DNA of 62,522 nt, filler included, from an uncultured archaeon (GTDB lineage Archaea; Iainarchaeota; Iainarchaeia; Iainarchaeales; 1-14-0-10-31-34), in NCBI GenBank assembly GCA_964442255.1. It is 3 parts of 3 records of this genome, joined end to end, with 100 filler letters (N's around TTAATTAATTAA, not from the genome) between each part and the next. Parts side by side here need not be neighbours in the genome. Positions count along the whole stretch, not along the records: positions 23,040 to 44,640 come from CAYTYC010000024.1; 2 more parts are not named here. One strand, 5' to 3'. Positions 4,667 to 35,485 of the stretch are shown piece by piece (the stretch's first letter is position 1; every line of letters begins with the position of its first letter). The notes beneath the pieces are model-generated. The model did not search any database, was not told the DNA's origin, and saw only the letters and a list, made by a program, of their open reading frames with translations. The position numbers and the translations under genes are program-made.

Positions 4667-5032
4667 TTACACAGGGATTGCTATTTTCAGCCCGGAATAC
4701 TTTGCAATAGGCTCAATTCCGCGGCTTTCTTTCCCTAATTCGATAAGCCCAAGCCCTTTCAGGGTTTTCACGTCGCTGAAAACATTTGCGTAAGGCCTTT
4801 TCGCGAGCCTGCTCAAGGCGTAAATCGTTTTAGGTTTTTCCGCCCTGATGAGCTTCAAAAGCCTTATTCTTTCTGTAGTAAGCACTTTCCGCAGGGTTTC
4901 CAGGTTTTCAAAGGAAATGAATTCCTGTTTTTCCCTGGCTTTCCCTGCCTTAACCTCGTTATAAGCCTCGGTAAACCGTTTTCCCGTTTCCTCAAGACTT
5001 TCAACTTTAATCGTAATCTCCTTTGCTTTCAT
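4667..5032 (-). CDS. HVO_A0114-like HTH protein, putative antitoxin (TumA-like)
   Basis: ISFENLETLRKVLTTERIRLLKLI...TIYALSRLAKRPYANVFSDVKTLKGLGLI wHTH pattern; ATGA overlap with the upstream DUF6516-like gene. Confidence 0.75.
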   Translation of the reverse strand: MKAKEITIKVESLEETGKRFTEAYNEVKAGKAREKQEFISFENLETLRKVLTTERIRLLKLIRAEKPKTIYALSRLAKRPYANVFSDVKTLKGLGLIELGKESRGIEPIAKYSGLKIAIPV

Positions 5033-5364
5033 TTCAGTTCCCCTTTTCTTATTTTTTCAAACTTAAGGGAAGTATCGGAACCGTGGGTTCTGATTTTTTC
5101 AGTTTCCCCCAAAAACCTTTCCACAAGCCTTTCAATTGATTCAAATTTAACTTTTCCCTCTTTTTTTCCAAAGTGCCGGTGATGCCTTTTTCCCAGTTCA
5201 TTATCGTAGCGGAGAACGCATTTGCCTTCCTGCACAAAACTCATTGAATATTTCACTCCATCCGGAAACGCTTCACTTTTTGGAACCCTGTGAATCTTGA
5301 ATTCTGCAAAGCTTTTCCTGTCCGCACTTAAGTAAACCCTGTCCTTAAGCAGCGGTTCAGCCAC
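5029..5364 (-). CDS. DUF6516 family protein, putative toxin (TumE-like)
   Basis: KIHRVPKSEAFPDGVKYS...VLRYDNELGKRHHRH family signature; GTG start. Confidence 0.75.
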   Translation of the reverse strand: MAEPLLKDRVYLSADRKSFAEFKIHRVPKSEAFPDGVKYSMSFVQEGKCVLRYDNELGKRHHRHFGKKEGKVKFESIERLVERFLGETEKIRTHGSDTSLKFEKIRKGELK

Positions 5365-5524: not shown

Positions 5525-6502
5525 ATGGCTGCAAGAAAGGTTTCTGAGCCCAAAAGAGGGCGATATGCAGGGAGACGCATTAACCCCGAAGAGCAAAAGA
5601 AATTGACCCGGTTCAGGCTAAGATTATTATTGCCTGATTACATTAGGCAATCCATGGATAAAGTAAATAGCAGGGACCCGGAACAAAGATACCGGGCAGT
5701 TGACCATATTTTGCAGTATCTTAGGATCTGTTGGAGTGGCGTGGCGAAAACTAAAAACCCGGTGGCCATGGGAAGACGGAAGGCAATAGAAAGGGAAGCG
5801 GTTCCGCTTTTGAAGAATGCTTTGGTTGACCGGATGGAAGAAACGCGGAAAAAAGCCTCAGATGCGATGCTTATAATGGGAAAATTGAAGGAAGCCGCGG
5901 AATCTGTTTCTTCCATGAATTTTGGAAGACTTTCTCGTTCCCTTTCTTGGACCCAGCAGCCCATGGAGTCTGTGGCAGAAAATAAAATAAATGCCCAAAT
6001 CGCAAGAATTAGGCAGGGGCAAAAAGCGGGAAAACAAAAACCGGCGTTTCACAAGGGAGTTGAAGTGCTCTTTGTGAATATCAAAGATCAGGGGATACTT
6101 GGGTGCAACCATAATGGCTTGATTCTAATAAACAGGGATTCTATTTTCCGGCTCGAGGAACATTTTGTGAAAGTTGAAAAAATGTCCCCACAGGCCGCCA
6201 AAGTACAAGTTAACAAAATTGTCGGTGCAGTCAAAGAGCATGAATTGGGTGAATTTGTGTCCCATGAATTGGGTGAATTTGTGTCCCATGAATTGGGGAT
6301 TGTGATGGAGCTTTTGCATGCAGAAAAAAAAGGTTTCATAAAAGAGCACTTGAAAATGTTTCATGATTCCAAGCATGCAAAAAAAAGCGGCTTAAGATGG
6401 AAAGTGTCTTTTAAAGAGGAAACCCCCTATGAAACCCGAAAAAAAATTATACTGACTCAGCTTCCAGAACTTAAAAAACATTTGCCTGAAAATCAGCCTT
6501 AA
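5525..6502 (+). CDS. Hypothetical protein: basic N-terminus, HEAT-like helices, repeated HELGE motif
   Basis: AVPLLKNALVDRMEETRKKASDAM resembles a HEAT/PBS-lyase repeat; 24-bp duplication HELGEFVS at 6239-6297. Confidence 0.7.
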   Translation: MAARKVSEPKRGRYAGRRINPEEQKKLTRFRLRLLLPDYIRQSMDKVNSRDPEQRYRAVDHILQYLRICWSGVAKTKNPVAMGRRKAIEREAVPLLKNALVDRMEETRKKASDAMLIMGKLKEAAESVSSMNFGRLSRSLSWTQQPMESVAENKINAQIARIRQGQKAGKQKPAFHKGVEVLFVNIKDQGILGCNHNGLILINRDSIFRLEEHFVKVEKMSPQAAKVQVNKIVGAVKEHELGEFVSHELGEFVSHELGIVMELLHAEKKGFIKEHLKMFHDSKHAKKSGLRWKVSFKEETPYETRKKIILTQLPELKKHLPENQP

Positions 6503-9500
6503 TCCAAAAAGTATTCGCCTTTCTTTGGCGCCGGGTCCATTCCCTTGCGTGTGCGGACTTCCCTAACCACTTTATCCTGCAGTTCTCTCGGCAAAGGTTC
6601 ATAGCCTGAATACTCAGCTGTCCAGATTGCCCTTCCCTGCGTTGCCCCTCTAATAGCGGAGCTGAAGCCAATTAACTCTTTCACTGGCGCCTTTGAAATA
6701 ATAATTGTGAGTTCCCCTTCCTGCCTCATTTCATTTATTTGTGTCCTGCGGGAGCCCAGCTCCTTGCTTACCCCGCCCATGTAATCCTGCGGAACATTGA
6801 TTGTGAGAATCTGTTTTGGCTCCAGAATAATCGGGTTTCCAAACAACACGCAGGCATAAATTCCTCTTGTAATGGCGGGCAGCACCTGCGCGGGACCGCG
6901 GTGAATTGCGTCCTCGTGCAGTGTTGCGTCCTCCAGCACAACCTTCACTCCCGTAACCCTTTCCTTTGCAAGCGGCCCTTCATTGGTTGCGTCCATGAAA
7001 GCCTGAATAATGAGTTCCCTGATTTCAAACAATGCCTCAATTCCGCGTGTGGCGTTAACCAGTGTGCAGGTGTTGTTCACGGCCCAGGTTTTCTTCGCCT
7101 CATCGTTGTCTATTCCGCAGTCCACAAGCTTTGCGATTGTTTCCTTGTTTTTCAGCTTTAATTTGCCCTGAAGCTTTGATTCCTTCAGTTTCTCCAGAAT
7201 TTCCGGTTCAATCGGCTCAATGCGCATCTTGAATTTGTTGTGCTTGTTCGGGGTTTTCGCTTCAATGGTTTGCGAAGGCTTTGTGGCTGTTTCATGGTAC
7301 ACGACAATAGGAGGGCTGACTGTTACCGGGATTTTGTGGTCGTGCTCTATTCTGTGCTGTGTTACCTCCAAATGCAGTTCCCCCATCCCTGAAAGAAGGT
7401 GTTCCCCGGTTTCCTGGTTTATTTCAGCCCTGATGTTCGGGTCCTCTTTTGTTATCTGCCTTATCACTTCAATAAGCTTTGGAAGGTCTTTTGTCTGCCT
7501 GGCTTCCACGGAAACAGTCATCACCGGCTCCGCACTGCTCATAAATGTTTCAAATTCATGGAGTTCCTGCCTTGTGCCGATTGTTTCGCCTGCCCAGACT
7601 TCCTTCAATCCGACCAATGCCGCAATATTCCCTGCCGGAATTTCTTCCACAGGAACCCTGTCCGGGCCCATGTACACTCCCACCTGTGAAATGTTGATTT
7701 CCTTTTGCCCGCCTATGAGCTTTACGTTAACCCCTCTTTTAACGGTTCCCGAGTAAATCCTTCCTGTTGCAATGTCCCCTGCGTGCGGGTCAACCGAAAC
7801 ATCTATAACCATCATTGCCAGTTCTCCTTTCGGATCGCATGAAAGCATTCCTTTTCCTTCCGCGCTTTCCGGCTCCCCTTTCCATATAACAGGGGTCCGG
7901 TATTTTTGCGCTTCAATCGGGTTCGGCAGATGGTTTACAACCATCTCCAAAAGCGCCTCATGCAGCGGGCTTTTCTGCGCCAAAGTTTTCTGGTCTTCTT
8001 TCTGGCAGTAATCGTACACGTCCTTGAAGGAAATCCCGGTTTCCTTCATGTGCGGGGCGGAAATAGCCCAGTTGTGGTACGCCGAGCCAAAAACAACCGA
8101 ACCATCATCAACCTTTACGCCCCATTTTCCCTTGAACTGTTCCGGGGAATTGGCTTTAATCAGCGTATTGACTGCCGCAATCACTTTCACAAACCTTTCC
8201 TGCATTTTTTCCGGCGAAACCTTTAACTCGTTCACAAGCCTGTCCACCTTGTTTATGAACAGGGTTGGCTTAACGTTTTCCTTAAGCGCCTGCCTTATCA
8301 CTGTTTCAGTTTGCGGCATCACTCCCTCCACGGCGTCCACAACAATCACGACCCCGTCCACGGCGCGCATTGCCCTTATGACTTCCCCTCCAAAGTCAAT
8401 GTGCCCGGGAGTGTCAATCACGTTAATCAGGTGCTCTTTTCCCTTGTATTCGTGCACCAACGAAACGTTTGCGGAATTTATTGTGATTCCGCGCTGCTGC
8501 TCCAGTTCATAGAAGTCCATGAACAGCTGCTTGCCGGCCAAATCCTTTGAAATCATTCCCGCGGCCGCAATCAAATTATCCGTAAGGGTGGTGTTGTGGA
8601 TGATTATTCCGTTTCCTATGAAGTTGTGTGTGCCTTCAACACTGAAATCGTAGACGAATTCCTCTTTTTCAGACTCTTTTTTTACGACAAAAACAGTGGA
8701 GCAGTCAAACAGCGTTTTCTCTATTTCCTGTATTTTTTCCCACGTTTCCCTGTTTTTGATTTCCGGGTTGCCGATGGAAGAATAGACAGTGGAAATGAAT
8801 TCCTTAAAATTCAGGCAATAAACCGTTTGTTTTCCAAGTTCAATTATTTCCTGGGTTTTTTTAAATGCTTTTAGCGGGATGCCGAGCTCTTTTCTGACGG
8901 TTTTCAACAACGTGCCTGAAAGGGGCAGCGCATCAGTGTTCCTGTTGGTTTGCGAAACGCCCGCAAAATTTAATGCCTTTGCCTGTTTTCTGTCCAGCCG
9001 GAATCCAACTTCTTCTGCAAATGTTTTCAGGTTTTGCCCGGAGATGTACAAAGTGTTTTTCTTTTCGTTGAAGGTTGCGCTGCAGCCAAACCTTAAAAGG
9101 CATAAATAGAGCTGGCTCAATATTTTTTTGGACCTGGAATTCAGGCTGATGGCCCTTCTTGAACTTTCCACTGTTCCGTCAGCATCAAAATACCCCTGGA
9201 TAAAAGCTTTGAGCAGCTGGTTGGGTGCCTTCTGCACCAGTGCCGGGACAGTGATGTTTGCAGATTTTTTCTGCATGGGAAACTCAAAACCGTGCTCTAA
9301 AATTTTCAGCAAGGTTAGGCCTGCTTTCAGGTCAACCCGTGTCGCTTTTGAGCCATACTTCCTTTCAACGGCGGTAACCCCAAAGGAACCCTTTGTTATT
9401 TTTTTAATCCCGTTGATTATCTGCCTGTCTTCGTTTGTTATTCTTATGTCTTTTCCGCATTTTCCTCCGTCCCCCCAGATTAAGCCAAGCAGGTACATAA

Positions 9501-10344
9501 ACTCCGTGAATTCGTATTCGGTTTGGGGAATCCTTAAGTCCACGGATGAGTGCCCTGTTTTTTGCAGGCTTTGCCGGTAATTTAATGCCCTGACAAGCTT
9601 GTAAGGGCTGTAGCCAAGCTTTTTGCTGACTTGCATGAAATCATTCAGCCTGTACCGCCCCCTGTAAACTCCGTGGTAAAATGACTTGTTTTTAAGTTGG
9701 GAGTTTATTTCTTTCCTGATTTTTTCCAGCCCGTAGGCAAGTATTCGCCTCTTGATTTCCAATGAATCCCTTTCATTCAACCTGAGAAAAAAACCGGGGT
9801 CTTTTGCAAGGCTTTCCAGCAAACATGTCTGCAGCCCAGCCAGCGTTAGGGAGTCGGTTTTAACAAATTTTGGGGCCAGGACAAAGTCGTTTAATTCGAT
9901 TTCTTTTGCCTGTTTTTCAAAAACTTTTCCATTTTCATCCAGGCACAGGAATTTGTGTTCCGGGGTTGTTTTTATTTTAAAGCCGTTTGAAAAAGTGAGT
10001 TTAACGAGTTTTTTGTTTGCTTTAAGTTTCCATACATGCGTGATTTTTTTCGAAACAAGCTCTTTTTTTTCTTTGTCAAAACTTACGGCCATTTCGCCCA
10101 GCCCTGACACATCAAACACTTCTTCCCATTTGTTTTCCCGCACCTTTTTTCCTTTTCCCGGCAGCTTGAACAGGCTCCCGGCGGTTTTAATCCTTCCATC
10201 CGAAAGCAGGATGTTTGTATTTCCGCTGACGCATTTTCCGTGGTCTATGTGCGCGACTATTCCGATGTTTCTGATGGTTTCCCTTCTGTTCATCAATTTT
10301 TCCGCTTTCTTGACAACGTCTTCTTTTTTCGCCAAAGCCATCAC
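6499..10344 (-). CDS. fusA: Elongation factor 2 (aEF2), intein-containing precursor
   Basis: IRNIGIVAHIDHGK|...|TTLTDNL, RGITI, DTPGH, NKVD, GMGELHL, diphthamide loop LHEDAIHRGPAQ; spliced length about 734 aa; start GTG 10344 or ATG 10341. Confidence 0.97.
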   Translation of the reverse strand: MMALAKKEDVVKKAEKLMNRRETIRNIGIVAHIDHGKCVSGNTNILLSDGRIKTAGSLFKLPGKGKKVRENKWEEVFDVSGLGEMAVSFDKEKKELVSKKITHVWKLKANKKLVKLTFSNGFKIKTTPEHKFLCLDENGKVFEKQAKEIELNDFVLAPKFVKTDSLTLAGLQTCLLESLAKDPGFFLRLNERDSLEIKRRILAYGLEKIRKEINSQLKNKSFYHGVYRGRYRLNDFMQVSKKLGYSPYKLVRALNYRQSLQKTGHSSVDLRIPQTEYEFTEFMYLLGLIWGDGGKCGKDIRITNEDRQIINGIKKITKGSFGVTAVERKYGSKATRVDLKAGLTLLKILEHGFEFPMQKKSANITVPALVQKAPNQLLKAFIQGYFDADGTVESSRRAISLNSRSKKILSQLYLCLLRFGCSATFNEKKNTLYISGQNLKTFAEEVGFRLDRKQAKALNFAGVSQTNRNTDALPLSGTLLKTVRKELGIPLKAFKKTQEIIELGKQTVYCLNFKEFISTVYSSIGNPEIKNRETWEKIQEIEKTLFDCSTVFVVKKESEKEEFVYDFSVEGTHNFIGNGIIIHNTTLTDNLIAAAGMISKDLAGKQLFMDFYELEQQRGITINSANVSLVHEYKGKEHLINVIDTPGHIDFGGEVIRAMRAVDGVVIVVDAVEGVMPQTETVIRQALKENVKPTLFINKVDRLVNELKVSPEKMQERFVKVIAAVNTLIKANSPEQFKGKWGVKVDDGSVVFGSAYHNWAISAPHMKETGISFKDVYDYCQKEDQKTLAQKSPLHEALLEMVVNHLPNPIEAQKYRTPVIWKGEPESAEGKGMLSCDPKGELAMMVIDVSVDPHAGDIATGRIYSGTVKRGVNVKLIGGQKEINISQVGVYMGPDRVPVEEIPAGNIAALVGLKEVWAGETIGTRQELHEFETFMSSAEPVMTVSVEARQTKDLPKLIEVIRQITKEDPNIRAEINQETGEHLLSGMGELHLEVTQHRIEHDHKIPVTVSPPIVVYHETATKPSQTIEAKTPNKHNKFKMRIEPIEPEILEKLKESKLQGKLKLKNKETIAKLVDCGIDNDEAKKTWAVNNTCTLVNATRGIEALFEIRELIIQAFMDATNEGPLAKERVTGVKVVLEDATLHEDAIHRGPAQVLPAITRGIYACVLFGNPIILEPKQILTINVPQDYMGGVSKELGSRRTQINEMRQEGELTIIISKAPVKELIGFSSAIRGATQGRAIWTAEYSGYEPLPRELQDKVVREVRTRKGMDPAPKKGEYFLD
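8593..10233 (-). mobile_element. Intein (547 aa) with LAGLIDADG homing endonuclease in the EF-2 P-loop
   Basis: Starts Cys (CVSGNTNILLSDG), block B TTPEHKF, LLGLIWGDG and FIQGYFDADG, block F/G VYDFSVEGTHNFIGNGIIIHN, followed by Thr +1. Confidence 0.96.
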
Positions 10345-19624: not shown

Positions 19625-19955
19625 TCAATTTCTCCTCCGGGGAACACATTTTTTTTCCAGGGCACGCGCATTGTTACTCCAAAATTAACGGGAGGCGGCT
19701 GATTTCATTCGTTCCTTGGAAAAAATCGCATACAAGCATCTAAACACACTTGTACATTTAATTATTCTTTAATAGAAAATAATATAAATCTTCTGCAATC
19801 GCCGTTTTTTTTTCCGGAATTTTCCGGAAAAAAGCTGGTTTTTCTTTGTTTCTTCCTTTCCAGCGACAAATTTTGCCTTTTTTTTCTTTTCCAGGGCTTT
19901 ACGCTTTTCCGTTAAGCTAAACGCTTTTAAGTAGTTTCCTTCAACTTTTTTGTGC

Positions 19956-20609
19956 ATGGCTGCGGAGAAAGATTTTCAGCTTTTAATGCTTATTGCAAAG
20001 AATTCTGAAAGAGGCTCCTTTACTTCGTCCACCCAAAAAATTTCGTTTTCCCTTGGCTATTCCCAGCAAACAGCCTCCAGAAAGCTCCGTGAACTCGAAA
20101 AAAAAGGATTAATTTCCCGGGAAGCCTCGCCAAAGGGAATGGTTTTGTCCCTCACCCCAAAAGGACGCGAATTACTGGAGTATGTTCACCTCCAGCTTTC
20201 TTCCTTGTTTGAAAAAAGCCCTGCACTGAAAAAACTCTCCGGCACAGTTGAATCTGGTTCGGGTGAAGGCGCTTACTACACTTCCCTTCCCCGGTACTCC
20301 AAGGCATTTAAGGGGCTGCTTGGAGAAGAGGTTTTTCCGGGAACCCTCAACATGCGGGTGAAACTTCCGGAGCTTAACGCTTTTTTGAACAGCCTGAAGC
20401 CGAAAAAAATTCATGCATTCAAAACAAAAACACGTGGCTTTGGCTCAACCGACTGCTTTCAAGTTAAAGTGAATTCACGCATTCCGGGGCTCATGGTTTT
20501 CCCCGAGCGCTCCCACCATCCCCGGGGCGTGGTGGAAATTGTTTCCCCTGTTTTTTTGAGAAAACGGCTTAAGCTTAGGGACGGAAGCAGGGTTTCCTTA
20601 AATTTTTGA
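19956..20609 (+). CDS. ribK: CTP-dependent riboflavin kinase with N-terminal wHTH (RbkR-type)
   Basis: SQQTASRKLRELEKKGLI HTH; GTVESGSGEGAYY, FPGTLN, PERSHH, LRKRLKLRDG. Confidence 0.92.
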   Translation: MAAEKDFQLLMLIAKNSERGSFTSSTQKISFSLGYSQQTASRKLRELEKKGLISREASPKGMVLSLTPKGRELLEYVHLQLSSLFEKSPALKKLSGTVESGSGEGAYYTSLPRYSKAFKGLLGEEVFPGTLNMRVKLPELNAFLNSLKPKKIHAFKTKTRGFGSTDCFQVKVNSRIPGLMVFPERSHHPRGVVEIVSPVFLRKRLKLRDGSRVSLNF

Positions 20610-30743: not shown

Positions 30744-30868
30744 GCATCCGTGGTCTAGTGGTTAGGATCGAAGCCTTCCATTAACGAAAGTTTAAGTGAA
30801 CAGAAAGTGTTCAAACGGGCTTTCCCGGAGGACAGCTTCTGACCCGGGTTCGAATCCCGGCGGATGCA
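30744..30868 (+). tRNA. tRNA-Gly(TCC) with a 53-nt intron at position 37/38 (30781-30833)
   Basis: GCATCCG/CGGATGC acceptor stem; GAAGC-CTTCCA[intron]A-GCTTC; CTTC:GAGG central helix with 3-nt ACA bulge. Confidence 0.93.
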
Positions 30869-32241: not shown

Positions 32242-32311
32242 CCTCCTGAAAAGGTATTAGGGCAAGGCAGTATATAAAGCTTTTTTCTTTCATATTTTTT
32301 GGGTGATTTTA

Positions 32312-32839
32312 ATGGATTTTTTTGAGGCCGTGGAAAAGCGGAGGTCTGTGCGGGAGTTTAAGGAAAAAGAGGTGGAAGAGGAGAAGCTGCAGAAGATTCT
32401 GGAAACAGTGAACCTTGCGCCGAGCGCAGGGGATTTGCAGGCTTACGAAGTTGTTGTGATTAAAAGCGCGGAAAAAAGGAAGGAGCTGGCTGAAGCGGCT
32501 TTTAACCAGCTGAAGAACTCCAAAACAGAGCCAATTTCCTTGGTGTTTTTTGCAAACCCTGAAAGAAGCGCGCAAAGGTACGGGGAAAGGGGGGAAAAAC
32601 TTTATGCGGTGCAGGACGCGACAATCGCAGCAGCTTACGCGCAGCTGGCTGCAACGGCGCTTGGTTTGGGAAGCGTGTGGATCGGCGCATTTGACCCGGA
32701 GGCAGTGAAAAAAGTCTGCAAGGCTTCGGAAGGGTTAGAGCCTGTGGCGATTATTCAAATCGGTTACCCCGCTGAAAAGCCGGAGAGGGCTCCGCGGAGA
32801 GAGTTAAAGGATTTGGTGAAACGGAAAGAATTCAAATGA
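32312..32839 (+). CDS. Nitroreductase family protein
   Basis: KRRSVREF, LAPSAGDLQ, LAATALGLGSVWIG, IGYP. Confidence 0.93.
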   Translation: MDFFEAVEKRRSVREFKEKEVEEEKLQKILETVNLAPSAGDLQAYEVVVIKSAEKRKELAEAAFNQLKNSKTEPISLVFFANPERSAQRYGERGEKLYAVQDATIAAAYAQLAATALGLGSVWIGAFDPEAVKKVCKASEGLEPVAIIQIGYPAEKPERAPRRELKDLVKRKEFK

Positions 32840-33735
32840 AGCCAAAAGAAAAAAGTGCTGTGCAGGGAATTGCGCTGGAAAGAATTTACAGGCTGGCGGA
32901 GTTGGCTGGGCAGGAGTTCAGCGAGCACCCTGAACGGAGCAAAGATTACGCGCAGCTCATTAAAAGGATTGGAATGAGGTGCAACGTGAAAATTCCTTCC
33001 GAAGTGAGGGAAAAGTTCTGCAAGAAATGCTTTGCTTTTTTGAAGCCGGGGGTGAATGCGGAAGTGAGAGTGAAAGAAAAGGGGTTGGTGGTGAAATGCA
33101 GGGAATGCGGGGCATTCAAGAAAATTAAATTAGAGAAGCCGGAAAAAAAGCTGGTTATAGGGATTACCGGCAGTTTGGGGACAGGAAAAACCGCGGTTCT
33201 CAAGGAATTCGGGGAACTGGGCGCGGAAACAATTCAGGCTGATGAAGTTGCAAAAGAGCTACTGGAAAAAAAGCCAAAGTTAAGGGACAGGATTAAAAGG
33301 CTTTTTGGGGAGAAGGTGTTTAAAGGGCCTGTACTTCAATCCAAAAAATTGGGGGAAATTGTCTTCACGGATTACGGAAAGCTAAGGAAACTGAATGCAT
33401 TGGTTCACCCTGAAGTGAAAAAAGAATTAAGGAGAAGGATTAAGGCAGGCAAAAAAAAGGTGGTGGCGGTTGAAGTGCCATTGCTTTTTGAATCCCGGAT
33501 GAAAGGGTTCTTTGATTTGGTGGTAGTGGTGTGGAGCGAAAAAGAAAAACAGCTTCAGAGAATGAAGAAAAAAGGGCTAAGCGAAAAAGAGGCGCTTAAA
33601 CGGATTAACGCGCAGATGAGGCAAGCGGAAAAGAAAAGGCGCGGAAACATTATAATAGAAAATAATAAGGGCGTGAAGGAACTCAAAAAAAAGGCCTTTG
33701 TTGTCTGGAACGAGGTAGTGGAGGAATTCAATTGA
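32836..33735 (+). CDS. coaE: Fusion: RNase P protein Rpp21 (aa ~1-99) plus bacterial-type dephospho-CoA kinase CoaE
   Basis: ERIYRL...FCKKC..LKPG...VKCRECG (Rpp21 Zn ribbon), then VIGITGSLGTGKT, ADEVA, LNALVHP, VEVPLLFE, RINAQM (CoaE) in one frame. Confidence 0.88.
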   Translation: MKPKEKSAVQGIALERIYRLAELAGQEFSEHPERSKDYAQLIKRIGMRCNVKIPSEVREKFCKKCFAFLKPGVNAEVRVKEKGLVVKCRECGAFKKIKLEKPEKKLVIGITGSLGTGKTAVLKEFGELGAETIQADEVAKELLEKKPKLRDRIKRLFGEKVFKGPVLQSKKLGEIVFTDYGKLRKLNALVHPEVKKELRRRIKAGKKKVVAVEVPLLFESRMKGFFDLVVVVWSEKEKQLQRMKKKGLSEKEALKRINAQMRQAEKKRRGNIIIENNKGVKELKKKAFVVWNEVVEEFN

Positions 33736-34205
33736 AGGCCGTTTACGCCGGCACGTTTGATCCCGTAACCTTCGGGCACCTGGATGTCGTGGGCCGCGCG
33801 CTTGGGTTGTTTGAAGAACTGATTGTGTTGGTTGCAAAAAACCCGCGGAAAGAGCCCCTTTTCAGTGCGGAGGAAAGGGTGGAATTGCTGGAAAAGGCTT
33901 TGGCAGGAAAAAAGAATGTTAAGGTTGAGGCATTTGACGGTTTGCTGGTGGATTATTTAAAGGAAAAAGGGCTGAAGTTTGTTGTCCGCGGGCTAAGGGA
34001 AATGATTGACTTTGGAAACGAATTCCAGCAGGCAATAACCAACAAAAAACTGAATCCGGAGATTGAAACAATTTTTTTGATGACTTCCCCAAAGTATTTC
34101 TATTTGAACTCTACGCTTGTGAAGGAAGTCGTGAAGTTTGGCGGCCCTGCGGGAGAGTTTGTGCCAAAAGAAGTTGAGGAAGCGCTGAAAAATAAAATGA
34201 AGTGA
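33732..34205 (+). CDS. coaD: Phosphopantetheine adenylyltransferase, bacterial type
   Basis: AVYAGTFDPVTFGHLD, VRGLR..DF..E, NSTLVKE; TTG start overlapping the coaE stop. Confidence 0.95.
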   Translation: MKAVYAGTFDPVTFGHLDVVGRALGLFEELIVLVAKNPRKEPLFSAEERVELLEKALAGKKNVKVEAFDGLLVDYLKEKGLKFVVRGLREMIDFGNEFQQAITNKKLNPEIETIFLMTSPKYFYLNSTLVKEVVKFGGPAGEFVPKEVEEALKNKMK

Positions 34206-34206
34206 G

Positions 34207-34678
34207 TTATTCTTCCCTTGTGTCTTTCCTTATTTGAAACCGCCTTAAATGCTTTTCCACGGTGTTTTTCAGGGCACGCCAGTTTTCCTCTGCAAATGCT
34301 TCCGGGATAAAAAAAGCCCTTAACTGGTGCGCGAATATCCCGCTAAAGCGGGGTTTGCCGTCTGGCTTTCGTTTTGCCTCTTTTTCAGCCCTTTTTTCAA
34401 AAATTTCAAGAAGGTCCAACGCTTTCCGCATAGTTGAAACGCGTTCCTTGCCGGGAAGCTGTTTCAGGGAAAACCTTTGGTGAAAGCCAGCCATTTCAAG
34501 GCCGCGGTTGGCTCTTTCAGCCTCGTCCCTTGAGGCGAGTTTGGGGGGGGTGCTTTCTTTTCGTTGACTCAATTAATTTTCTTCCCTTTGAGCCCGGCTT
34601 TTTAAGTTTCCCGGAAAAGAAATCAAACAGCCTTCTTAAAGGGCCTGGTTTCCTTGTTTTTCTTCTTCCGCGGGGCAT
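34207..34678 (-). pseudogene. Orphan basic-leader protein frameshifted at a C8 tract (34543-34550)
   Basis: ATG 34678 MPRGRRKTRKPG frame stops at 34517; removing one C joins it to the 34207 frame, giving 156 aa. Confidence 0.55.
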
Positions 34679-34777
34679 AAGCAAACCTATAAAAACCTTA
34701 TTTGGGGGATTTAATATAATATATAAGGGTTTGAAGCTGCTTATATAGGTTGAATTTTTGGTTTTAAAGTGGTTTTT

Positions 34778-35485
34778 ATGGTTAGAGCATATGATGTGCA
34801 CGGAACGGATTTGGTGAAAGGGCTGGCTGAAGAGCTGAAAAAAAATCCCGCCCTAAAGCAGCCTGAATGGGTTGAATGGGTGAAAACCGGCAGGCACAGG
34901 GAAAGGGCGCCCACAGACAGGGAATGGTATTACACGAGAATGGCGTCAATTCTGAGAAGGGTTTACGTTGACGGGCCGGTGGGAACGGAAAGTTTGAGAA
35001 GCTATTACGGGGGAAGAAAGGCAAGGGGAGTCAGAAAGCACAAGGTGTTCAAGGCATCAGGAAAGGTTGTGAGAAACTGTTTGCAGGCGCTGGAAAAAGA
35101 GGGGTTCATCAAAAAAGAAAAAACAGGCAGGGCGATTACAGCAAAAGGAGCAAGCCTTTTAAGCAAAAAATCAAAGGAATTGTTTGAAAAAATGAAGGCG
35201 GAAAAGTCAAAAAAAGCTGAAAGAAAGGCTGTTCCGCAAAAGCCGGTGCCTGAGAAAAAATTTGAGGAAGCTAAAAAGAAAAGCGAAGCGAAAGCAGAGC
35301 CAGTGCCATCAAAGATCCGGCACACAGAAACCGCGGGAAGGCGGGGCTTACCGCCGGATGAAACCGGCAAAAAAGAAAAGGTTGAAGGGCATGGAAGAGG
35401 AGGAATTAAGGAAGAAAAAACTGGAAGAGCTGAAGCAAAAGATGCAGGAAAACCAGCAGCAGCAAAACCAGCAGCTTCAGGCTGA
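34778..35485 (+). CDS. rps19e: 30S ribosomal protein S19e (eS19) with long charged C-terminal extension
   Basis: PEWVEWVKTG..RERAP...WYYTRMASILRRVY..GPVG...YGG. Confidence 0.95.
   Translation: MVRAYDVHGTDLVKGLAEELKKNPALKQPEWVEWVKTGRHRERAPTDREWYYTRMASILRRVYVDGPVGTESLRSYYGGRKARGVRKHKVFKASGKVVRNCLQALEKEGFIKKEKTGRAITAKGASLLSKKSKELFEKMKAEKSKKAERKAVPQKPVPEKKFEEAKKKSEAKAEPVPSKIRHTETAGRRGLPPDETGKKEKVEGHGRGGIKEEKTGRAEAKDAGKPAAAKPAASG

Follow-up and report, generated by a model that had tools for sequence, protein, structure and literature searches.

A reading frame joining the RNase P subunit Rpp21 to a bacterial-type dephospho-CoA kinase in Iainarchaeota

The locus and the fused reading frame

The stretch of DNA analysed here (the window, 62,522 nucleotides (nt) long, filler included) comes from an uncultured archaeon of the Iainarchaeota (GenBank assembly GCA_964442255.1). 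It carries a gene, rpp21::coaE, in which the coding sequence of the ribonuclease P (RNase P) protein subunit Rpp21 runs without interruption into that of a bacterial-type dephospho-coenzyme A (CoA) kinase (DPCK). The gene is a single open reading frame (ORF) with an ATG start that codes for 299 amino acids (aa) plus stop. It is followed by coaD, coding for phosphopantetheine adenylyltransferase (PPAT), and by the ribosomal protein gene rps19e. The features of the locus, all on the plus strand, are the following:

32836..33735 (+): rpp21::coaE fusion gene, defined by the ORF, the Pfam and NCBIfam matches and its orthologues
32836..33126 (+): Rpp21/Rpr2 domain, residues 1–97, two long helices followed by a zinc ribbon (PF04032, structural model, fold match to 1x0t)
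33019..33108 (+): zinc ribbon, from C62-K-K-C65 to C88-R-E-C91 (conservation of the four cysteines)
33127..33150 (+): short lysine-rich linker, residues 98–105, without stop or in-frame start (from the sequence)
33151..33732 (+): bacterial-type CoaE domain, residues 106–299 (PF01121, TIGR00152, fold matches)
33169..33192 (+): kinase P-loop, G112-S-L-G-T-G-K118-T (T111, G112, G117 and K118 invariant)
33732..34205 (+): coaD, bacterial-type PPAT, TTG start (TIGR01510)
34769..35485 (+): rps19e, the ancestral downstream neighbour of rpp21, on the far side of the coaE-coaD insertion (PF01090, 165.5 bits)
32303..32839 (+): nitroreductase-family gene (PF00881, 105.1 bits), whose stop overlaps the fusion ATG by 4 nt

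The 299-aa protein matches two Pfam families in succession, Rpr2 (PF04032) at residues 17–92 (53.9 bits versus a cut-off of 29.3, profile positions 2–90 of 90) and CoaE (PF01121) at residues 106–281 (148.5 bits versus a cut-off of 27, profile positions 1–179 of 180). It also passes the NCBIfam dephospho-CoA kinase equivalog TIGR00152 (136.8 bits, cut-off 65.55), and the Pfam scan of the window protein finds no DUF359 (PF04019), the domain of the archaeal GTP-dependent DPCK arCOG04076. The translation contains CKKC (residues 62–65), CREC (residues 88–91) and the linker KKIKLEKPEKK. The gene ends are compact: the nitroreductase ORF ends at 32839, 4 nt inside the fusion that starts at 32836 (ATGA), and the fusion ends at 33735, 4 nt inside coaD, whose TTG start lies at 33732 (TTGA). 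An earlier note, made from the DNA sequence, had described an uninterrupted 299-aa Rpp21-CoaE frame with these motifs and this linker, overlapping its two neighbours by 4 nt each. The ORF coordinates, the translation and the two Pfam domains bear it out on each of these points. The coaD gene forms an ORF by itself, beginning with TTG, and passes the TIGR01510 equivalog (192.3 bits versus a cut-off of 103.3), in agreement with the bacterial type assigned to it in the note. The chain partner of the kinase is Rpp21, so the product is not a PPAT-DPCK chain of the CoA synthase type.

The fusion recurs in other genomes. A search over 5.8 billion proteins returned 10 further proteins of 290–301 aa from several sources, which carry both Pfam domains and are 43–51% identical to the window protein; the source annotation of the fused proteins names them “dephospho-CoA kinase” and nothing else. 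A profile search of 1.84 billion cluster representatives gave 4 full-length fused proteins (407–446 bits), the next match (196 bits) being CoaE alone. The scan of species genomes yielded seven further fused loci (L001–L007), and L096 in genome G018 is the eighth beyond the window. Among 214 genomes of Iainarchaeota/Diapherotrites, 8 top places in 7 genomes span both halves in one open frame, and the remaining places among the matches listed cover one half only. The search for other Rpp21 fusions among longer proteins, which is weak for long proteins, found only the rpp21::coaE family. The note had suggested looking for the Rpr2 plus CoaE architecture elsewhere and had allowed that the fusion might be unique to this assembly; with 10 proteins, 7 of the 214 phylum genomes and 8 further genomic loci, it is not. 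The fusion is real and inherited, not an artefact. Note that genome G003 has two diverged copies of the fusion (L003 and L007, the contig of the latter stopping inside the kinase) together with two RNase P RNA matches, which fits two binned strains and not paralogues.

Conservation and predicted structure of the two halves

In the alignment of the 11 fused proteins the four zinc cysteines (C62, C65, C88, C91) and the P-loop residues T111, G112, G117 and K118 are invariant, and so are D136, H191-P192, L216-L217-E219 and R242 further along the kinase (11/11). The same P-loop residues are invariant in all 14 fused rows of a larger set, and the four cysteines are present in each of 32 standalone Rpp21 proteins of the phylum. 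The Rpp21 half retains, in at least 7 of 8 fused proteins, 23 of the 31 positions that are conserved in at least 80% of these standalone proteins, the four cysteines included. Comparison of 58 standalone CoaEs gives 24 positions with at least 75% conservation; the kinase half retains 21 of these in at least 13 of the 14 fused rows, and the window kinase keeps 23. The linker is short (~8–10 residues) and of similar length across all nine fused loci, window included. Judged from these patterns, both halves look functional and under constraint.

The AlphaFold model of the fusion (mean predicted local distance difference test (pLDDT) score 86.7, predicted template modelling (TM) score (pTM) 0.62) features two separate folded domains. 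Its Rpp21 half has helices at residues 3–28 and 32–48 and strands at 75–97, and the linker region is less confident (block means 78–80). In Foldseek comparisons the Rpp21 half matches 1x0t (TM to target 0.85, root-mean-square deviation 1.4 Å), 2zae_D (0.83) and 6k0a_G (0.71), and the kinase half matches 4ttp (E 3.9e-14, TM to target 0.83), 2grj (0.85) and 8dv0 (0.85). Sequence profile searches give 6k0a_G (E 9.6e-20) and 2if2 (E 9.2e-44).

A complex was modelled between the full-length fusion and the Rpp29 of genome G002, that is, with proteins of a relative and not those of the window. The complex scores 0.82, the best of three controls 0.02; at least 90% of contacts are shared between runs, the partner pLDDT is at least 83, and every confident contact falls in fusion residues 1–49. 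The mark applied to such scores is reached by 58 of 80 solved complexes and by 2 of 110 mismatched pairs, counts that are rough, own alignments having been used. Rpp21-Rpp29 complexes have been solved already (2zae, 2ki7, 6k0a), so that the pass may be memory of the model and speaks for likeness kept, not for binding. Within these bounds, the kinase does not displace the Rpp29 interface in the predicted G002 complex.

The organization of the protein can be set against three known systems. With archaeal Rpp21/Rnp4 (P. horikoshii Ph1601p, 1X0T and 2ZAE; M. jannaschii 6K0A chain G) it shares the two N-terminal helices, the four-cysteine zinc ribbon and the predicted Rpp29 interface on the helices, and with the unfused Rpp21 of the phylum it shares the position of its gene upstream of rps19e. 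It differs by its length (~300 aa versus ~100–130 aa), by a C-terminal enzyme of 200 aa, and, relative to standalone Rpp21, by three replacements that the fused clade carries at near-invariant helix positions. With bacterial CoaE (A. aeolicus 2IF2, L. pneumophila 4TTP, E. coli 1VHL) it shares the full-length PF01121/TIGR00152 match, the pairing with coaD and the P-loop, Asp136, the His-Pro motif, LLxE and Arg242, but its kinase has no start codon of its own and stands behind an RNase P subunit, in an archaeon. The third system is that of the PPAT-DPCK fusions (mouse CoA synthase 2F6R, prokaryotic CoaD-CoaE and the archaeal PPAT-arCOG04076 fusions described in the available part of PMC6650551), in which CoaE or its analogue is likewise found in a longer chain. 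These unite consecutive enzymes of one pathway, whereas in rpp21::coaE the kinase is joined to a subunit that processes RNA and has no known link to metabolism, CoaD being encoded apart by an overlapping gene.

No paper joining “Rpp21” and “dephospho-CoA kinase” was found in the literature searched, in line with the earlier note, which knew of no description of the fusion. One paper that mentions RNase P and CoaE together with fusion and archaea deals with an unrelated subject. A screen for fusions across archaeal genomes (PMC11237513) has a main text without RNase P and gives coaE with other partners only, its supplements being covered in part. The searches thus turned up no printed account of the Rpp21-CoaE architecture.

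Genomic setting and origin of the fusion

The gene content that accompanies the fusion was determined in five fused-clade genomes by family searches whose controls matched in the expected reference genomes. In all five the fusion frame holds the only Rpr2 match and also the only CoaE match; the second rpp21 that the earlier note had thought worth looking for is found in none of them. The other RNase P components, on which the note had raised the same question, are present: archaeal RNase P RNA above the gathering score (5/5), Rpp29 (5/5), Pop5 (5/5) and Rpp30 (5/5, 4 of them over the cut-off). Full-length RNase P RNA matches span 271–331 nt in fused genomes; two unfused genomes gave matches of 288 and 372 nt, and two others scanned gave none.

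Of the CoA pathway, only the end was detected in these genomes. The DUF359 kinase and the DFP/CoaB (CoaBC) domain were each found in 0/5 fused-clade genomes, and type III pantothenate kinase (PanK-III) and archaeal phosphopantothenate synthetase (PPS) each in 0/7 genomes. In 5/5 the best-scoring cytidylyltransferase gene is coaD, immediately downstream of the fusion. Besides CoaD, G002 has the nucleotidyltransferases NadD, RfaE-II and a RibL-like protein (34 bits versus a cut-off of 104 for archaeal PPAT). Of the 214 phylum genomes, 95 contain a bacterial-type CoaE and one the DUF359 kinase, consistent, like the TIGR00152 match, with the bacterial-type kinase of the earlier note. The note had also stated that characterised archaea use a different, GTP-dependent DPCK, and this agrees with what the available part of PMC6650551 describes, namely the arCOG04076 kinase, unrelated to CoaE and absent in some DPANN. 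An exception to the gene order is found in G018 (L096, contig C1), where the fusion is followed directly by rps19e and coaD is missing at the locus; no PPAT-like gene was found in its 1.3-Mb metagenome-assembled genome (MAG).

The neighbourhoods of unfused genes identify what was added and where. Nineteen standalone coaE loci were chosen from 88 unfused CoaE-bearing genomes. In 17 of them coaD directly follows coaE, one shows no coaD and one (L098) codes CoaD and CoaE in a single ORF. The flanks of the standalone coaE-coaD pairs differ between genomes, and their 39 flanking proteins include no RNase P gene product and no recurrent RNA-processing neighbour. Conversely, neither coaE nor coaD is found at any of 48 unfused rpp21 loci. 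In 27 of these 48, rpp21 is followed by a co-directional rps19e, at a distance of no more than 400 nt in 12; rps19e is on the opposite strand in 5 and beyond the fetched flank in 16. At L038 the gap between rpp21 and rps19e measures 1597 nt. The order rpp21::coaE, coaD, rps19e is found in L001–L006. This order and the rpp21-rps19e order of unfused loci place the cassette exactly in the rpp21-rps19e spacer. The coaE-coaD pair is old in the phylum, and the event specific to the fused clade is its move beside rpp21 together with the in-frame join. The earlier note had proposed a horizontally acquired coaE-coaD unit; the bacterial type of the genes stands, while their recent acquisition at this locus does not, CoaE being present in 95/214 genomes and paired with coaD at 17/19 loci elsewhere.

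Phylogeny of genes other than the kinase indicates that one fusion event suffices. In the tree of S19e, a marker independent of the fusion, all 8 fused loci are on one side of a branch with support 99/97. In the combined Rpp21 and S19e tree the fused group has support 94/87, and its sister (96/95) is an unfused locus with rpp21 directly before rps19e.

Some features of the standalone loci are recorded here. The CoaD-CoaE ORF of L098 (4807-5946, minus strand, genome G036) codes for 379 aa and a similar frame is found in G037, so that CoaE was fused at least twice in the phylum, to its pathway neighbour and to Rpp21. Genes for HIT-family hydrolases (two loci) and a NUDIX hydrolase (one locus) stand beside standalone coaE-coaD pairs in L088, L095 and L103, which at 3/19 loci is anecdotal. 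The HIT and NUDIX families act on nucleotide-linked compounds.

Function of the fusion protein and alternative explanations

The gene probably codes for one bifunctional polypeptide whose two halves act independently. We infer from the evidence above the activities of the two halves, the membership of the protein in the RNase P particle, the salvage route and the lack of coupling between the halves. Residues 1–97 would be the Rpp21 (Rnp4) of the organism, which would pair with Rpp29 through its two helices and join RNase P on the specificity domain of the RNA. Residues 106–299 would be a bacterial-type P-loop DPCK. Together with the translationally coupled CoaD it would carry out the last two steps of CoA synthesis, from 4'-phosphopantetheine to dephospho-CoA and from dephospho-CoA to CoA. 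With the earlier CoA steps and the archaeal kinase not detected in the fused-clade relatives, these two steps would represent a salvage route. The fusion arose a single time, in the common ancestor of one small Iainarchaeota clade; the old coaE-coaD pair of the phylum would have come to stand between rpp21 and rps19e, with loss of the rpp21 stop. The join would persist because it is harmless and hard to undo; the fusion looks like a tolerated accident of gene packing, not a new mechanism.

In the particle, the kinase would be attached at the distal end, to the exposed Rpp21 C-terminus. The available part of PMC6565675 describes the M. jannaschii holoenzyme with an Rpp29-Rpp21-L7Ae trimer at its distal ends, Rpp21 lying between Rpp29 and L7Ae, and with extra C-terminal residues of Rpp21 that form a helix on L7Ae and the P12 junction. 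This packing implies a C-terminus that points to the periphery, and an added domain may fit there. A further RNase P paper (Nucleic Acids Research 2022, PMC9371926) has nothing on the Rpp21 terminus.

Several observations weigh against this account of the protein or of its origin. Concerning the Rpp21 half, the window fusion reaches only 70.3 bits in the NCBIfam equivalog PRK03954 (RNase P component 4), below its cut-off of 162. Moreover, F21, R37 and A42, near-invariant in the 32 standalone Rpp21 proteins, are replaced in 8/8 fused proteins (positions 32896-32961 in the window). The sole-copy counts come from MAGs of 1.1–1.3 Mb whose completeness is unstated and which are relatives of the window organism. 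Concerning the kinase half, two T. kodakarensis homologues of bacterial DPCK (TK1334, TK2192) are inactive as DPCK according to the available part of PMC6650551, so that homology alone is no proof of DPCK activity. G018 keeps an intact kinase domain (21/24 conserved positions) despite the lack of a detected PPAT, which a purely CoaD-coupled role leaves unexplained. The CoaE tree is mostly a polytomy, in its quick and careful versions alike, and allows no donor to be named; 32 of its 33 phylum rows are in one weakly supported half and its fused rows split into three groups. Approximately unbiased (AU) tests leave a single fused clade unrejected (p 0.77 and 0.55), and likewise a single clade of all phylum rows versus 25 bacterial rows (p 0.76), a test in which 14 database rows of unknown origin did not count. 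The constrained tree is likelier each time. The common descent of the kinase half depends on these tests, which fail to reject it. In the same tree two standalone bacterial CoaEs (L008:10001-10582 and L009:291-848) are placed beside the window kinase with support 99/83, the tree being otherwise unresolved. Both lie in genuinely bacterial contexts, L008 with genes for a C25 peptidase, MscS and MCP adjoining; the grouping may result from inter-domain transfer or from a long-branch effect.

An unlikely alternative, though the likeliest of those considered, is that the tether is functional and the kinase links RNase P to CoA metabolism. The kinase could sense nucleotides or CoA and so tune the 5' processing of tRNA, or could act on dephospho-CoA freed when RNase P removes very short CoA-capped leaders. 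Stated specifically, the ligand state (ATP, dephospho-CoA, CoA) or the activity of the kinase would feed into tRNA 5' maturation, or RNase P would hand over dephospho-CoA from one-nucleotide CoA-capped leaders; in this form the proposal is very unlikely. If such coupling were true, cofactor metabolism and tRNA maturation would be linked in a new way, and the kinase would be the first metabolic enzyme built into an RNase P particle. The retention of the fusion through divergence to 42–51% identity is consistent with a benefit, but it needs none, since separating the halves again would take the gain of a stop, a start and a ribosome-binding signal. For the specific form of the proposal, the intact kinase of G018 without a detected PPAT is the one observation pointing to a tether that is not neutral. 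The three substitutions fixed in the Rpp21 helices of 8/8 fused proteins could similarly be read as adaptation to the kinase. The predicted Rpp29 interface, however, includes position 37, positions 21 and 42 adjoin interface residues and none of the three faces the kinase, which makes it more likely, on the model, that they track Rpp29.

Comparison with unfused genomes offers little to such coupling. The absence of coaE and coaD from the 48 unfused rpp21 loci, and of RNase P genes among the 39 flanking proteins of the 19 standalone loci, speaks against it, as does the rarity of the architecture (4 of 1.84 billion representatives). The fused kinases are no more basic than the standalone ones of the phylum (median isoelectric point 9.8 versus 10.0, p = 0.2), and an adaptation of the kinase to an RNA setting was set aside for lack of a charge difference. 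A changed RNase P RNA in fused genomes finds no support, the matches being full-length and of ordinary size in fused and unfused genomes alike.

The chemistry of CoA-capped RNA bears on the same question. In dephospho-CoA-capped RNA the 3'-OH of the cap adenosine is tied up in a phosphodiester bond. A dephospho-CoA kinase has no acceptor there, the adenosine lacking a free 3'-OH; the reaction scheme behind this argument is found in the available part of PMC10761072. The same source reports that PPAT adds a CoA-type cap to ATP-initiated RNA in vitro, as the earlier note had said. This reaction would favour coupling but concerns CoaD, which is not the fused partner of Rpp21. The link to CoA-capped RNA that the note had considered is therefore not supported, there being neither a recurrent association of coaE or coaD with RNase P genes outside the clade nor a 3'-OH acceptor.

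It is highly improbable that the gene yields two separate proteins, with CoaE made by internal initiation or the chain cut in the linker. An in-frame GTG or TTG is found at or just before the first kinase strand in 5 of 9 fused loci, in positions that are not conserved, and the linker is rich in lysine and modelled with the lower confidence given above. The other 4 loci, including the window, lack in-frame ATG, GTG and TTG codons from the ribbon to the first kinase strand. The count in the window is zero from the second CxxC onwards, its sole TTG lying within the P-loop. The earlier note had reported the lack of an internal ATG at the junction, and the lack extends to GTG and TTG. None of the 11 fused proteins has a methionine at the start of the kinase. 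With no start codon before it, at least the window kinase can only be translated within the fused chain. No conserved start and no mark of a cleavage site was seen in the loci compared, and the linker has only ~8–10 residues. Frameshifting in the A-run of the linker, which would release a free Rpp21, was considered and set aside: A-runs of equal length occur elsewhere in the gene and the L002 linker has none.

An equally slim chance is to be given to a C-terminal domain that is CoaE-like but acts on another small molecule or nucleotide and is not the DPCK of the cell. The inactivity of TK1334 and TK2192 as DPCK, reported in the available part of PMC6650551, and the presence of the domain in G018 without any PPAT found are in its favour. 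The TIGR00152 equivalog is nevertheless passed at more than its cut-off (136.8 versus 65.55 bits), and the window kinase keeps 23 of the 24 positions conserved in the 58 standalone CoaEs. In addition, its gene and coaD form an overlapping pair in the window and in L001–L006, and the five fused-clade genomes yield no alternative DPCK candidate.

That the open frame is an assembly or sequencing error joining two genes has next to no chance of being true: the linker has an error-prone A7 run (with equal-length runs elsewhere in the gene) and four short contigs leave 33040–33238 uncovered, but the in-frame join recurs in independent assemblies, at 8 other loci, as well as in 10 database proteins from several sources, with linker sequences that have diverged while preserving the frame.

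A bifunctional chain with independent halves would have consequences beyond this clade. It would be a natural experiment suggesting that the Rpp21 C-terminus can bear a folded enzyme of 200 aa while the protein serves as the only Rpp21 of the cell, which is of use for tagging and engineering archaeal and eukaryotic RNase P. The label “dephospho-CoA kinase” is an annotation trap, with which surveys of small archaea would score Rpp21 as missing. In Iainarchaeota a bacterial-type CoaD-CoaE finishing route replaces the archaeal kinase. The locus also suggests that a fusion of unrelated proteins may become fixed simply when a cassette inserts into a cluster of packed, constitutively expressed genes, which calls for caution in “Rosetta stone” inference.

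The remainder of the window is archaeal and rich in core genes: it codes for an intron-bearing tRNA, RpoB/A, S12, S7, EF-2, EF-1alpha, S10, S19e, L31e, eIF6 and SRP54. No structured RNA was found at the fusion locus apart from one tRNA upstream. This is a 125-nt Rfam tRNA match (30744-30868, plus strand, 51.4 bits) unreported by ARAGORN, probably an archaeal tRNA that contains an intron. The nitroreductase gene has no match in the seven other fused loci searched for one (L001–L007) and is a neighbour peculiar to the window. An antisense ORF of 121 aa (34207-34572, minus strand), with no Pfam match, lies between coaD and rps19e; the corresponding spacer measures ~100–150 nt in other fused loci and is longer in L005 and L006. 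The elongation factor 2 gene (6502-10344, minus strand, 1281 aa) has an intein with a LAGLIDADG homing-endonuclease domain inside its GTPase domain. Two adjoining small genes (4670-5364, minus strand), with a TumE toxin domain and an HVO_A0114 domain, resemble a toxin-antitoxin module. A 219-aa ORF (19950-20606, plus strand) joins a MarR-type winged-helix domain and a CTP-dependent riboflavin kinase domain.

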